Positions 5,874-43,584 of a stretch of DNA of 64,000 bases are shown here, one piece after another. Within the stretch, counting starts at the first letter, position 1, and each line of letters opens with the position of its first letter. The notes beneath the pieces are model-generated. The model did not search any database, was not told the origin of the DNA, and saw only the letters and a list, made by a program, of their open reading frames with translations. Position numbers and translations under genes: made by a program. Source of the DNA: Mobula hypostoma (lineage: Eukaryota); contig NC_086097.1 of NCBI RefSeq assembly GCF_963921235.1, forward strand, positions 87,484,001 through 87,548,000. The letters are read 5' to 3'.

Positions 5874-6134
5874 ATGCAATTTTGCCCCTCAGTTCCCACT
5901 CGAAACTTACGACTCTCAACTCATCCTATGTCCATTAGTTTTACATTCCCCTATCCTGAGAGAAAAACTGTGTCTATCCACTTTATCTACATCCCTCATG
6001 ACTTTATGTAACTTTATAAGGTCACCCCTCAGCCTCCTATGTTTCACTGAAGGAAGTCCCAGCCTAACCAGGATCTTCTTATAACCCAGGCCCTCCAGTC
6101 CCAGTGACATCCTCATGAATCTCTCTGGCAAAGT

Positions 6135-8425
6135 TTTCATACCTGGCCCCAGCAGCTTGAAGCATGCAGCTGCCTCCCATTTGCCATGGGATTATCACTG
6201 GCCTGAAACGTATTGCACAGAAATCTATTTAAAATTACAGCCAAGTTTTCACCATTCCCTCCAACCTTCCCCTGTCCTGAGCAAGGCTCTTAGCTTTGTT
6301 TCTCTGTGCCTTCGCCTCACTGGGTTCCACACCCATGCAACACTGAGCACTTTTTCCATTGCCTCTGTCTCCAAGCCCATTTCTTTGGCACAGATTTCCC
6401 ATCCTGCACGGGTGACCCTTTCTCCTGTGTTCAACCCTCACCCTGTTCTTGGACATCCTGCACAGGTCTTCTGCCCACTCTGGATCTTTTCTTCTCTAAC
6501 TAGTGATAAGACATCATCTGACTTGACCTCAGCAGTCCTCTCTCCTATTCGAACTCACGCCTTCTGAACGCACTGCCCTCCACTCGCTCCACACCAATCC
6601 CAATCTCACCATCAAACCTGCAGAGAAGGAGGATACTGTTATAGTCTAGTGGACTGAGCTACCTTGCTGAGGCCAGAGGACATTTCTCAGACACCTCCTC
6701 TTACATATCCCTTAAAAAGGACGTCGCTAAGAAACATCAGGTCTCCTGCACCATCACCAATCTCAATGACTCTGGAAATCTCCCATCCACTGCCACCAAA
6801 CTCATAGTTCTCTTATCCCACTGCTCATTTCTGCTCCCTACCCAAGATCCACAAACCTGACTGTTCAAATAGGCTTATGGTTTCTGCCTGTTCCTACCCC
6901 ACTGAACTCATGTCCACATACCTCAACTTTATTTTGCCCTCTTGAATCAGTCCCTTCCCTTCTACATCTGTGACTCCTCACACACACTTGACTTCTTCAA
7001 TTACTTTCAATCCCTTGGCCCAGATCACCTCATTTTATCACTATGGATGTTCAGTCCCTATAGACTTCTATCTCCCAACAGGAGGCCTTAAAGCTCTCCA
7101 CTTCTTTCTAGACAACAGATCCAAAACCACCCTCCTCTGCCTGGCAGAACTGCTCATCCCACTCTCTCCAAACCCAAAATGAAGCCATGGGCTTCCGCAT
7201 GAGCCCCAGCTACTCTTGCCTTTTCATTGGCTACGTGGAATAGTCTAAGCTCTAACCCTACACTGGTAGTGCTCCCCAACTCTTTCTGTGCTACATTGAT
7301 ATCTACACTGGTGCTGCTTCCGGAACCCATACTGAGCTCGTTAACTTCATCAACTTAGCCTCTAATTTCCACCCTGCCCTCAAATTTACTTTGTTCAACA
7401 CTGACATGACTGTCCACCTTCTTGATCTCCCTGTCTCCATTTCTGGAGAAAGACTTGTCTGTTGATATTTTTTATAAACTCACTTACTCTCACAGCTATC
7501 TTGAATATACCTCTTCCCACCTTGTAGGTTGTAAAAATGTTATTTGCTGATTTCAGTTCCCCTGACTCTACCAGAGCTGTTTTCAGGATAAGATTTACCA
7601 TTCCATAATATCTGAAATGACCTCTTTCTTCAAAGAACCTGGTTTCTTCTCCTCTACCATCAAAGCAGCCCTCACCCACATTTTGTCCATTTCCGAGACA
7701 TCCACCATCACCCTAACTTCCTGCCGAGTGGACATCTCTACATTGGTGAGATGTGCCATAGATTGGGGACCACTTTGTCAAGCTCCTTTGCTCTGTCTGA
7801 CACAACAGGTGGGATTTCCCACAGGTCACCCACTTTAATTCTACTTCACACTTCCATTCCAAAATATCAGTTTATTCTCTCCTCTACTGCCACAACGAGG
7901 CCACTCTCAAGTTGGGGGAGCAACACCTCAAGTTCCATTTGCGTAGCCTCCAACCTGATCAATTTCTCTAACTTGTGGTAATTTCTCCCCCACCTCTACC
8001 CCCATTTCTCTCTTTTTCCTTTCTCCATTCTGCTTCCTTCTCTTCTCATCACTTGCCCATCACCTCCCTCTGGCACCCTGCTCCTTCCCTTTCCCCTGCC
8101 TCCTCTCCTATCAGGTTCCTTCTTCTTTAATCATTTACCTTTTATGCCTATCACCTCCCAGCTTCTCACTTCATCACTCCTCCCTCACCTAGCCACCTTA
8201 CCCCTCACCTGGTTTCACCTATCACCTGCCAGCTTGTACTCCTTTTCACCCCCTCACCTTTCATGCTAACTTCTTCCCATTTTTGTTCTACTACTGATGA
8301 AGGGTCTTGGCCCAACATGTCCATTGTTTATTCCCGTCCATAGATGGTGCCTGACTTCTTGAGCTCCTCCAGCATTTTGTGTGTGTTGCTCTGCATCTTC
8401 AGCATCTGTAGGTTCTCTTGTATTT
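6135..8425 (+). mobile_element. Penelope-like element, decayed RT plus GIY-YIG endonuclease
   Basis: Broken-frame motifs LSKALSFV, NPNLTIKPAEK (IKPADKG-like, ~6597), PKIHKP (6841), TMDVQSL, AMGFRMSPSYSCLFIGYVE, YID, and LYIGExxHRLG (~7737). Terminus has ctgatga-agggtcttggccc. Confidence 0.88.
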
Positions 8426-11811: not shown

Positions 11812-11945
11812 AGGCAGGCGGTGCCAAGGCAGCCAGCGAGAACAAGCTGGAGGAGAGACTGTATTCGGTGCTGTCGCAAGATCGAAGAAGATGGAGGTGC
11901 ATAGCCGCCAACCCTGGATTCGGGACAGCACCCACTGACTGACTG
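11812..11945 (+). mobile_element. 5'-truncated copy of the chimeric RTE-tailed element carrying a ZFTRAF1/CYHR1 fragment
   Basis: Encodes GGAKAASENKLEERLYSVL-SQDRRRWR; (ctga)n tail; perfect 8-bp TSD ACCACTTT (11804-11811 and 11946-11953); about 90% identical to the 3' end of the copy at 41943-42489. Confidence 0.88.
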
Positions 11946-13339
11946 ACCACTTTGAAAAGTACTCCAAACCCAGCTCCCAAATGGACAGACTTGCGTCTGC
12001 CCCTACTGGGCCACACTTCATCATGAATCAAGGCAACTTTTCAATCAATTTTGCTGTCAAGGCCAATGTACCATTTGCCTTCCAAATCGCCTGATGTACC
12101 TGTACATTAACTTGCAGTCATTTGTGAAGAAGGACAGCTCAGTTTCTTGGAACACCAATGCTTTTCAGTATCTGACTATCTGAGAAAAACTTTTGAGTTT
12201 TTCTCATTTTTCCACATAATATTCCATCTGCTACGTCTTCACAATTCACTTATATGGATTTCCCTTGGGAGTTTCTCTGTATCTTAGTCATGTCACATCT
12301 TAATATCATCAGTAAACATAGATATTTTGCTTTTTTAAATCATTTATATATGAACAGCAGAACGCCCACCCGTCACAGCCTTACAAACCTAAAAGACATA
12401 GTTTTCCTGTTCTCTGTCATCTCTTAACCATTCCTCAGTCTACACCAGTATTACTGTGAGCCTTACATCATGTAGTTTTGTTTTATAATCTCTTACCAAA
12501 GGTGTTCTGAAAGCCAGGCTCACCATTTCCCCAATCACATCTGAGGTAAGAAAAGGAGGAAAAGAAGAGGAACAGCCGAAGGAAAAGCATGGTAGAAAGC
12601 GATGGCAAGAGGGTTTCTCTGGCAAATCTGTGGTGAATCGCCTTTCAGTGCAACTGAGAACCAGAGGATCAAACCAAAGAATCACATTGGGTTAGTAAGT
12701 AACAAATCTTGAACATCATCTCAACTTGAACTGATAAATAGCAAGTTAAATTGACAGCATACAAAGTAATTCCCAACTACATGAAGAAGCCTATTCCCCC
12801 TTGCCAAAACTGAGAGCCCCGTATCTATTCAGCTGGTTACAGGCTCAGAAACCTAACTGATTTGCTAAACGTGATCTTCTTTTCATGAATCAATGTAGAC
12901 TCTGCCCAATCCTATTATTATTTTCTAAGTGCCCTGCCACTGCTTCCTTAATAATAGATTTTATCATTTTAAGAGCTGTGACTGACAGCCAGAAAATAGG
13001 ATTAGTCTGGATAGCTTTTACTTTTGCTTGGCATGGTACAATGGGCAGACCGACCTCTTGTTGTGCCATAAATTTCTATGACAACACGCATATGAGGCTT
13101 CTAAAAGTTGTGGCTGAGGCAGTGTTGATGGTGGCTGCCAAAATTCGCCTGATTCTTAGATAATCGCAGCAGACTGGGAGATAATTGAATGTTATATTGG
13201 TATTTAAGAAGAGGGAGAAAAGAATTGGGGAATCAAATGCTAATTACCCTGGCATCTGTTATCTGAAAAATAGAGAGATGTCACTCCTGATGTGGTGACA
13301 GGGTACTAGGAAAATGCTTCCACCCTCAAGGTAGTCCTG

Positions 13340-40952: not shown

Positions 40953-41942
40953 AAAAAAAAAAGTGGTATTTCTCATGAGTTCAGATTGTATTTTACATTT
41001 AACATAACGTGCAGTAATCAATATTGTAAATTAAAGGAATACATCAGTTAATTTTATTAGTGGCAAGGCCCACATGTACTAATGAGGCAGCACAGGAGAC
41101 TGAAGAGAGATTTAATTGTATATAAATGTGAGATGCCTGTAATGGAACAGGGCCTATAATCCCTATGCAGAGGGATTAATATCTTCAGGAAAAGTTAATT
41201 GACTGAAGAATTTGTGAAAAGTTGAAGAAAATTTTTATTTTTTCAATCAGTGATCTAAGTGTGTACAGGTATCCCCACCTTTGAAAGATTATACTGTTAT
41301 CAATCTACATACACTTCAAGGACTAGTTTACTTCATTGTTCAGTCTCCATGACAGGGTTCAGCTGTCAATTATGACTGTTTAAGTAGTGGGTTCTCCCCC
41401 CACTCCCACCAAGCATAAGATAAGTTAAAACTTTATTTATCCCAAAGGAAATTGTTGTTGCAAAGTTGCTCAGTCAGAAATATATACTTTAAAATACAAA
41501 ATGTAAGTATTGAGGTACGAAAAAAATATACAAAATGTACATTTGAAAAGTAATATTGCAAAATACAGATGTGCCATGAGACCATATACTTATATAGTTA
41601 AGGAGGAGGAGTTGTAGAGTATTATAGCCACAGGGAGAAAGGATCTCCTGTGGCTTTCAGTGGTGCACCTCGATGAAATCAGTCTGTTACTAAAAGCTGA
41701 TCCTCTGTTTGTCCAGTATGTCATGGAGGGAGTGAAAGGGATTGTCCATAATGCTCTGCAACTTCTGCAGCATCCTCCTGTCAGACACAACCACCAGGAA
41801 ATCCAGTTCTACTCCCAGATCGGAACTAGCCTTCCTGATGAGCTTATTGATCTTCTTGGCATCAGCTGCTCTCACCCTGCTGCCCCACTACAGTGTGGAA
41901 TAGAATGCCGGCTACTACTGAGTGGTATATCATCTGCAGCAT

Positions 41943-42489
41943 TGTCAGTCAGTGGGTGCCATCCTGAATCCGGGGTTGGCGTCTATGTACCTCCATCTTC
42001 TTCGATCTTGCGACAGCACTGAGAACAGCCTCTCCTCCAGTTTGTTCTCACTGGCCGCCTTGGCACCGCCCACCGCCACCCCCGCCAAACTCGAGTCCGA
42101 GGCCGTATCGGCCTCCAGCCGCGGCTGCTTCTTTGAGCTCAGCCTTTCCTTAGGTGGAGGCCTTGGGCAGGTCCAGGCACACGGTGCAGCGCCCAATTTC
42201 ATCATGTCTCTTCTAACTAGGTGCATAGCATACGATTCGTAGATACATGGTGAGGCTTTAATCTCTTCCATGGAAGATAGCCATTAGCTCACAAGGAGCT
42301 CATCCGCTCTTTGTCCGGTCTTGTATTTTTTAGTCCTCCTGTGTGTCCTCACACCCTCCTCACCAGACTAAGTCCAGTGGGGGAGCCGCCCCAAGTCGCT
42401 GACCACTCGACCATAGCCCCCGGCTGAGCGCCTGCCCCCTGCTGAATTTCTCTGAGCGTCCGGCGCCCGATCGAAGACCAAACCACTAT
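41943..42489 (-). mobile_element. Chimeric non-autonomous RTE-tailed retroelement carrying a host exon fragment
   Basis: Splits Rex1 between CSTM and LQM; TSD AC(T/A)ATGC; (ctga)n tail; RTE-like C-terminus MMKL(A)QDRRRWRYIDANPGFRMAPTD interrupted by host sequence. Confidence 0.85.
42013..42190 (-). pseudogene. ZFTRAF1: Circularly permuted fragment of the first coding exon of ZFTRAF1/CYHR1
   Basis: 42190-42156 encodes [11 protein letters not shown]; 42157-42013 encodes PPKERL...ENKLEERLFSVL. Recalled vertebrate CYHR1 reads PPKKR...[26 protein letters not shown]. The two ends rejoin seamlessly as GTG CTG T^GC TGC ACC. Confidence 0.85.
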
Positions 42490-43584
42490 GCATAGTACTG
42501 CAGACGTTGAATAACTCGAGCCTCCTCTGGAAGTACAGTCGGCTCTGTCCCTTGTACAGAGCCCCTATATTTTCAGTCTAGTCCAGTTTATTGTCCAGGT
42601 GAGTTCCCAGGTACTTTTAGTCCTGGACAACTTCCACGTCTGTTCCCTTGTTGGAGATGGTAATGCATGGTGTTTTCATCTTCTTGTCCTGGAATCCACC
42701 ACCAACTCCTTTGTCTCATGATGTTGAGCTGCAAGCGATTCAACAAAGTTGCTCAGTACTCTCCTGTCTTAGCCTCTTGTCCCTGGTTGATGCAGCCCAG
42801 AACTGCCGAATTGTCTGAAAACTTCTACAGGCGGCAGGACTCCTAGTCGAAGTGGGGGGGATAGGACAGTCCCCTGAGGTGACCCTGTGCTACTAACCAC
42901 AGTTTCTGATACACGGCTCTGCATCTCACAAACAGTGACCGCCTGAACCCGTAGTCTGTAATCCAGGTCACTAGTGGAGCATCCGTCTGCATCTCTGTGA
43001 GTTTACTCCCTAGTAAAGCAGGTTGTATGGTGTTAAAAGCACTGGATAACTCAAAGAACATGACTCTTACAGTGCTGTCTGGCTCATCCAAATGGGTGTA
43101 AGCCTGTTGAAGCAGGAGCGGTGTCCTTGACTCCAAAATGTGATTGCTAAGCAAACTGCGGTGGTGAGGGGGGAGGTGGCCCAGTGAAAGGTGTGTGTCA
43201 GGACCAGTTTTTCTAATAATTTCATAACATGAGGTCAGTGCTCTGGTCTGTAGTCACTGGGCGTGGTGGGATATGTCGTCTTGGGTAATGGAACTAAGCA
43301 GAATGGTTTCCACAGCACTGGGACTCTCTCCAAGCTTAGATTAAAGATATGTTGAAAGACTGCACCCAGCTGAGTAGCACACACCTTAAGTACGCTTCGG
43401 CTGATGCCATCTGGACCCACTGCCTTGCTTAGGTGAAGTCTGCTGAACTCTCTCCTTACCTGCTCAGCAGTGATGGGATGAGATGTTTCCAACTAATAAT
43501 GTAGTTTTAAATAGTTTATTTTATCTTTAGTGATGCACATTTAATTTGGACAAAATAATTCTTGACTGAGACTTAAGAATTTCT

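Follow-up and report, generated by a model that had tools for sequence, protein, structure and literature searches.

Copies in which two adjoining parts of a source segment stand in rotated order (AB in the source, BA in the copy) are the accepted genomic footprint of circular intermediates, and are known as single-locus insertions of eccDNA and as retrocopies of back-spliced circRNAs. Non-autonomous LINE deletion derivatives and LINE-tailed SINEs are another familiar class: they are short, high-copy elements that carry the 3' end of a partner LINE and show TSDs and 5' truncation. CircRNA-derived pseudogenes, which are retrocopies of circular RNAs, have been reported from both mouse and human (Dong et al. 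2016, Cell Res, PMC4897178); one circle, circRFWD2, gave rise to 33 copies, and these are associated with retrotransposon sequence (PMC4897178). For human eccDNA-mediated germline insertions, the available part of a recent preprint (Zhang et al. 2026, 10.64898/2026.09.03.749254) gives 82 cases recognized by AB->BA block order; they are single loci, 80 of the 82 are on the source chromosome, and they are enriched for terminal microhomology. The available part of another study (Law and Burns 2025, 10.1101/2025.02.02.635956) describes sense-oriented L1 chimeras (U6/L1 and mRNA/L1) that form by RNA ligation, template switching or trans-splicing, and reports a preference for first exons that precede a long intron; neither "circular" nor "circRNA" is used in that part of the text. 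In the literature that we searched, no non-LTR retroposon family was described as containing a circularly permuted host exon, which is not proof that none exists.

The repeat that we describe here contains such a piece, from exon 1 of the host gene ZFTRAF1. It resembles the circRNA-derived pseudogenes (PMC4897178) in its rotated parental order, its germline inheritance, its many copies that would go back to one circle, and its lack of poly(A). It differs from them in that the junction is off exon boundaries and GT-AG and the putative circle is a 178-nt one from inside a single exon; also, the ZFTRAF1 piece lies within a LINE-derived element, as one of its modules, and this element has ~800 copies; the host is a cartilaginous fish. 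With the eccDNA insertions, so far as the available part of that preprint describes them (10.64898/2026.09.03.749254), the repeat shares the exact rotation of a short source interval that is covered completely and without overlap, but it has no microhomology, is found on many contigs, places the piece between LINE ends and bears the hallmarks of retroposition. As in the L1 chimeras of the available text (10.1101/2025.02.02.635956), sense-strand host RNA sequence is combined with the 3' part of a LINE, there are TSDs, and the source is a first exon before a long intron; unlike in those chimeras, the host piece is permuted, it lies between two LINE parts instead of at the 5' end, and the LINE is RTE-like. 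LINE-tailed SINEs have the same traits of 3' end, TSD and truncation, but no tRNA, 5S or 7SL head was detected in the ZFTRAF1 repeat, and its body includes a piece of a host coding exon.

The window (the whole stretch of Mobula hypostoma DNA that was analysed, 64,000 nucleotides) contains one copy of this repeat at 41944-42487 on the minus strand, and a second, shorter copy (Table 1). From 5' to 3', the element consists of a leader (~95 nt), a LINE 5' segment (~225 nt), the permuted ZFTRAF1 piece (178 nt), and the LINE 3' end (69 nt plus (TGAC)n). For the copy at 41944-42487, we could not resolve a TSD. The leader begins with ~26 nt that repeat the start of the LINE head in inverted orientation (88%), so the leader of the short element has the potential to form a 5' hairpin. 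The copy seems to be nested within an older LINE-like element. Open frames at 42846-43253 and 41700-41900 (both on the minus strand) have what we take to be a resemblance to the reverse-transcriptase and C-terminal motifs of fish LINEs; the frame at 42846-43253 had no match in Pfam.

Table 1. Parts of the repeat copy in the window, with the second copy (window positions; L074 is a near full-length copy of the partner LINE)
Feature	Position	Strand	Remarks
GC-rich 5' leader	42414..42487	minus	internal deletion of ~22 nt in the window copy; 5' limit approximate
LINE 5'-derived segment	42191..42413	minus	ends ...GATGAA(A/C)TTGGGC; consensus 51-261 is 88% identical to L074 2064-2278
ZFTRAF1 exon 1 segment B, 40 nt	42151..42190	minus	11 codons + 5 nt; downstream of A in the gene
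ZFTRAF1 exon 1 segment A, 138 nt	42013..42150	minus	...SSKK.PRLEAD...ENKLEERL(F/Y)SVL; directly upstream of B in the gene
Partner-LINE 3' end	41944..42012	minus	last 22 codons (AQDRRRWRCIAANPGFGTAPTD in LINE copies); stop codon within the (TGAC)n terminal repeat
Second copy, 5'-truncated (part of A, including its end, and the LINE tail)	11813..11947	plus	94.8% identical to consensus 390-524; TSD ACCACTTT

Translation of window 42190-42013 on the minus strand gives 12 residues in one frame and then, in the next frame, ...KERLSSKKQPRLEAD...ENKLEERLFSVL (also read as ...KERLSSKKQPRLEADTASDSS...AKAASENKLEERLFSVL). A database search returned one longer relative, P0002, which the database names zinc finger TRAF-type-containing protein 1 from the sawfish Pristis pectinata. 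The long (second) part of the protein matches residues 60-112 of P0002 and the short (first) part matches residues 114-124, so the order is reversed in the element. The same 3.48-Gb genome has its own ZFTRAF1 gene, on contig C5, with four exon matches that are 86-98% identical to P0002. Exon 1 of this gene (locus L034, minus strand) has its ATG at 1836 and its splice donor (cag/gtacag, where the slash marks the junction, as in all sequences below) after 1510, and it is followed by an intron of ~91 kb.

Comparison with the animal's own gene confirms that the element contains an exact, unit-length circular permutation of part of exon 1, with 40 nt of segment B placed before 138 nt of segment A. 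In the window, segment A is identical to the gene at 124 of 138 positions (L034 1691->1554) and segment B at 35 of 35 (L034 1553->1519). The consensus of the repeat, which is the majority of 38 fully aligned copies out of ~800, matches the gene at 136 of 138 positions in A and 39 of 40 in B (L034 1553->1514), or 175 of 178 overall, with three differences. The two segments are contiguous in the gene in the order A-B and stand in the order B-A in the element, and the outer ends of the piece abut in the gene with 0 bases gained or lost. The unit is exactly 178 nt (L034 1691..1514 corresponds to window 42190..42013), and the gene interval is represented a single time, with no overlap and no gap, as expected for a cyclic AB->BA shift of a short source interval. 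The preliminary description, which was made from the letters alone, had already claimed the permutation and the rejoining of the last and first bases without loss or gain, and had predicted that the two sub-segments would map adjacently within exon 1 in swapped order; all of this agrees with L034. Its match of PPKERL to PPKKRL was spurious: the gene encodes ELEEGPSSKKRPRLEAD, and the homology begins at AGGAA(A/G)GG. The 178-nt piece is 71% GC and has 20 CpG. It is wholly exonic, from the coding part of exon 1, and it ends 4 nt short of the exon's 3' end. The sense strand of the gene matches the sense strand of the LINE parts of the element.

All three junctions of the module are blunt. The internal B-A junction is at window 42151/42150, which corresponds to 4 nt before the exon 1 donor. 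There the consensus reads ...GCCTCC GCCTA/AGGAAGGG..., while the gene reads GCCTCC GTCTA CCAG/gt after B and ...GAGCTGG/AGGAAGGG before A. Segment B thus extends 5 nt past GCCTCC (GCCTA in the consensus and GTCTA in the gene, with 4 of 5 bases matching). Where the head meets B, the LINE has ...TGGGC/CCCTTG and the gene has ...GCTGT/GCTGCACC; where A meets the tail, the gene has ...GCTGT/GCTGC and the LINE has ...AAGAG/CGCAAG. Against the gene and 14 LINE copies, the head-B, B-A and A-tail junctions each show 0 nt of microhomology, and the borders of the module coincide exactly with the transitions between LINE and non-LINE sequence. We can therefore correct the earlier placement of the internal junction near 42156 with a shared CC, since the 5 nt after GCCTCC belong to B, and the short direct repeat that was expected at the outer ends is missing. 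The earlier statement that the internal junction is not at a splice site was right: it is 4 nt upstream of the donor on one side and intra-exonic on the other. In the gene, B is followed by CC and A is preceded by GG, in place of GT...AG, so the rotated order is present without a back-splice-type junction (at exon boundaries and with GT-AG).

A hairpin with a 5-bp stem and a 6-nt loop, GGUGC-UGUGCU-GCACC, is predicted at L034 1546-1561, and the point at which the unit opens (U/G) is at the centre of its loop. This predicted hairpin was found in both the MFE and the centroid folds of the exon RNA.

The preliminary description had regarded this locus as the fossil of a captured circle, but it is one retroposed copy from a family with ~800 junction-bearing copies. 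The 178-nt piece as query gave 918 first-look candidates in the genome, and 40 scored copies were 91-100% identical to it. Across 29 loci that we compared, the repeat unit is ~537 bp (window 42480-41944), with a constant 3' end and variable 5' truncation. An alignment of 14 long copies puts the start of the family ~25 nt before ATGGTTTTCGG, which gives a length of ~560 bp for the full element. Truncated copies are directly flanked by TSDs of 7-11 nt, and copies end in (TGAC)n. The B-A junction motif is present at 793 places genome-wide (with up to 3 mismatches), as compared to 0 for a reversed-pattern control. The colinear A-B junction occurs once genome-wide (with up to 2 mismatches), in the gene itself, and at this threshold there are no colinear pseudogenes or repeat variants anywhere in the genome. 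Copies are on many contigs, and every copy that we saw was a retroposed copy; another family member on the same contig, at a distance of 79.8 Mb from the window (L055), is 92% identical to consensus 37-521. Because of the LINE 3' tail, the (TGAC)n, and the TSDs and 5' truncations seen across the family, we conclude that window 41944-42487 is an ordinary member, copied by retroposition, of a family of ~560-bp non-autonomous elements that derive from an RTE-like LINE and that the capture took place elsewhere.

All three junctions are identical in 38 of 38 aligned copies (of ~800 in the family), so there was a single founding event, followed by LINE-type amplification to ~800 or more copies. That the same permutation would be kept in all copies and in their consensus had been proposed as a check, and it was found in each of the copies examined. 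None of the copies examined has tandem multimers of the permuted piece, which the preliminary description had named as a sign of template switching. The copies diverge from the consensus by 5.0% on average, or by 3.1% outside CpG sites. In 4 of 100 copies listed, 13 nt are absent between two AAGG motifs that flank the B-A junction (these copies include C1:57922468, C1:107157286, C2:236883927, and C21:181429296). These copies could reflect slippage deletions that recurred or could form a small subfamily.

The partner of this element is a LINE that is present in the same genome. Among 16 sampled matches to the tail, five (L056, L058, L061, L064, and L067) have LINE coding sequence upstream of the tail. 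This coding sequence ends with ...RKRAQDRRRWRCIAANPGFGTAPTD and meets the tail at the tail's first bases (consensus 452-454), and its stop codon is inside the (TGAC)n. Over its 69 nt, the tail has an identity of 98-99% with the end of the LINE's open reading frame in L058, L064, L067, and L074, and of 96-97% in L056 and L061. In the near full-length copy L074, which has Exo_endo_phos and RVT_1 domains, the counterpart of the short element's head is in the 5' region (2064-2300) and that of the tail is at the 3' end (6090-6162, 99% identical). The part that is homologous to the head (L074 2064-2278) closely precedes the endonuclease ORF of the LINE. Across 14 LINE copies, this homology extends through GATGAACCTGGGC, after which the LINE continues with CCCTTGCG and the short element continues with segment B of ZFTRAF1.

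We considered whether the element is a canonical SINE and rejected this, as no tRNA, 5S or 7SL head was detected and the head is LINE 5' sequence. ARAGORN found no tRNA in the head, and no Rfam family matched at E<=1 besides chance-level matches. Because the head lacks a tRNA or Rfam match and both head and tail are from a LINE, we classify the element as an internally deleted LINE derivative. It has the 3' end of an autonomous LINE, TSDs, a constant 3' end, 5' truncation, and many dispersed copies, as is typical of non-autonomous retroposons that are mobilised by LINEs. Its host piece, in the sense orientation, is connected to LINE 3' sequence in a single insertion with flanking TSDs, as in chimeras of LINEs with cellular RNAs. 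The named Atlas clusters nearest to the LINE are "craniofacial development protein 2-like," which is, we believe, the usual label for RTE/BovB-type endonuclease domains. Assignment to the RTE clade, which combines the architecture, the nearest Atlas clusters, and this link between names, should be read as a lead.

Two other arrangements involve the same LINE. Another repeat of ~400 bp (L022 1023-1423) has at least 1962 first-look candidates and copies that are 94-95% alike. It has the LINE 5' segment (consensus 51-189, 79%) with a different 3' half, and it is probably a second derivative of the front end of this LINE. Also, several near full-length LINE copies (L076 2001-2500 and L083) have an inverted internal piece of the LINE (~380 nt) upstream of the 5' leader. 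A link to a LINE copy said to carry OTUD5 was rejected, as its region (L054) has no sequence in common with the ZFTRAF1 repeat.

Segment A is in frame with the last 22 codons of the LINE's ORF, which gives a 122-codon open frame in the consensus. This frame has no match in Pfam. It is open in 17 of 36 copies, while 13 are frameshifted and 6 have stops, and the substitution rates at the three codon positions are equal (103/4072, 90/3736, and 92/3583, or 0.025, 0.024, and 0.026). A coding function for the 122-codon frame is ruled out by the equal rates and by the 19 of 36 copies that are broken. To judge from these sequences, the copies decayed neutrally, and no coding role can be detected for the module.

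The permutation originated a single time, in the founder. As for the route by which the founder formed, we think that it was probably the copying, by a LINE reverse transcriptase, of a small exon circle that had been opened, and that the circle was most likely RNA. A circle-like template is suggested because the outer ends of the piece abut in the gene with no gain or loss, and a unit-length circle that was opened once would be the simplest template, with the fewest steps. During target-primed reverse transcription, the LINE reverse transcriptase would copy the last 69 nt of the LINE RNA and would then jump, end to end, onto the exon-fragment circle, which a single cut in the predicted hairpin loop would have opened. 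It would run off this template after exactly one unit, jump back onto the 5' region of the LINE RNA, and finish synthesis there. With both LINE ends retained, the chimera could then be amplified by the machinery of the LINE to ~800 or more copies.

Several features of the element favor such a route at the RNA level. The piece is located exactly where the 3' end of the LINE would otherwise meet its 5' segment, which is where template jumps would place it, and such jumps during target-primed reverse transcription would also account for the internal deletion of the LINE. The sense orientation would be expected from a DNA circle only half of the time. The piece is wholly exonic and its end is 4 nt from the exon's 3' end, which DNA breaks do not predict, and all three junctions are blunt at the transitions between LINE and non-LINE sequence. 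An element with head and tail but without the insert gave 0 matches, as compared to 200 matches at the filled spacing (these were exact-match patterns, which diverged examples could escape), and because of this we favor one composite event. The location of the opening point in the middle of the predicted hairpin loop may lend the RNA route a little weight, although we noticed it post hoc. The circRNA-derived pseudogenes (PMC4897178) and the sense-oriented L1 chimeras (10.1101/2025.02.02.635956) are published analogues of events at the RNA level.

Other features weigh against the RNA circle. The B-A junction is not a canonical back-splice, so closure of the circle would be non-canonical, and a spliceosomal reading takes an extra 2-nt deletion and a substitution in the founder. 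Blunt junctions would also suit classical DNA end joining. A length of 178 nt, a GC content of 71%, and an origin from an exon and CpG island suit microDNA as characterized in the available part of a review (PMC8194206). An intact circle is also problematic: non-LTR reverse transcriptases can displace strands, so exactly one turn requires that the circle be nicked. On balance the context favors RNA over DNA as the template, without amounting to proof. More specifically, we tentatively suggest that the LINE reverse transcriptase copied an intra-exonic circular RNA that was not made by the spliceosome (it would be ligase-made or otherwise non-canonical) and that this chimera became the ~800-copy family.

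The preliminary description had proposed a circle of DNA instead. To account for this element, a 178-bp microDNA or eccDNA from exon 1 would have been linearised at a different point and end-joined into a broken LINE that lost ~3.7 kb of its interior, and the product would then have become the source element. The exact AB->BA order is the criterion for human eccDNA germline insertions in the available part of that preprint (10.64898/2026.09.03.749254), and blunt junctions are compatible with classical NHEJ. The size of 178 nt, the 71% GC, the 20 CpG, and the exon origin do fit microDNA, and they agree with the 100-400 bp and GC-rich character given in the available part of the review (PMC8194206); this much of the proposal stands, but it does not show that the origin was DNA. 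Microhomology or short direct repeats are the usual signature of these events in the available parts of both sources (10.64898/2026.09.03.749254, PMC8194206), but there is no microhomology at the circle junction or at either insertion junction. The insertion would also have to strike inside an active source LINE, along with a large deletion whose ends coincide with the insert, and we found no empty head-tail precursor (0 exact matches versus 200 for the filled form). Nor does a model of DNA breaks predict that the piece would be in the sense orientation, be wholly exonic, and stop 4 nt from the end of the exon. Given the location of the piece at the seam between LINE parts, its orientation, the exonic end 4 nt off, and the lack of an empty element, we consider a DNA circle to be unlikely.

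It is similarly improbable that no circle was involved. A linear 178-nt fragment of ZFTRAF1 mRNA might have been cleaved once and its halves brought together in swapped order by three end-to-end jumps in succession (tail -> A -> B -> head), or the halves might have been joined by an RNA ligase such as RtcB before reverse transcription, instead of by jumps of the reverse transcriptase. This would account for the same junction data with the same two breakpoints in the gene as our main model, and non-colinear retrocopies can arise without circles (Dong et al., PMC4897178). But it needs one jump more than the circle model, and both halves of one molecule must be taken consecutively from the cellular pool of RNA. 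Also, the predicted folds leave the two ends of the unit unpaired, rather than bringing them together, which argues weakly against this explanation.

Back-splicing is more doubtful still. In this case, the exon 1 donor (CAG/gt) would have been joined to a cryptic AG/GAAGGG acceptor to form a 180-nt circRNA, and the founder would then have lost CC and acquired a T>C change near the junction. The gene reads ...GTCTACCAG/gtacag and ...ctggag/GAAGGG, so the GT-AG rules would hold, and the fragment ends only 4 nt from the real donor. Intron 1, at ~91 kb, is long, and exons before long introns were reported to be prone to aberrant splicing into L1 chimeras (10.1101/2025.02.02.635956, in the available part). 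However, back-splicing requires three additional base changes in a stretch of 9 nt, when the remaining 169 nt show just 2 differences from the gene, and CTACCAGG is kept in 0 of the 38 aligned copies and 0 of the 100 copies listed. The share of probability that we assign to back-splicing overlaps with that of the RNA-circle reading. Finally, a tandem duplication at the source, which the preliminary description had listed as a possible objection, is rejected by the single A and single B in the 3.3 kb around exon 1 (L034) and the one colinear junction genome-wide, and a chance origin of the arrangement is rejected by the 793 B-A junction places versus 0 for the control and by the 175/178 identity between gene and consensus.

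The footprint at ZFTRAF1 is unusually clean, with an exact unit length, blunt junctions, and 3 differences from the gene in 178 positions. It lies at the seam of a LINE deletion derivative that was later multiplied ~800-fold. For annotation of this genome, we caution that the ~800 ZFTRAF1-like protein matches are repeat modules and not genes or pseudogenes. The finding gives a precise junction, and reads derived from the gene can be separated from those derived from the repeat by three diagnostic bases of the gene (the T in GTCTA, the T in GACTCGG, and the G in AACAAGCTG). If the template was RNA, then very small exon circles with a non-canonical closure can serve, in the germline, as templates for the reverse transcriptase of a LINE other than L1, and such captures of circles can build new mobile families. 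If it was, more narrowly, a non-spliceosomal RNA circle, then the family would be natural germline evidence for exonic mini-circles that were reverse-transcribed, became fixed, and seeded non-autonomous retroposons.
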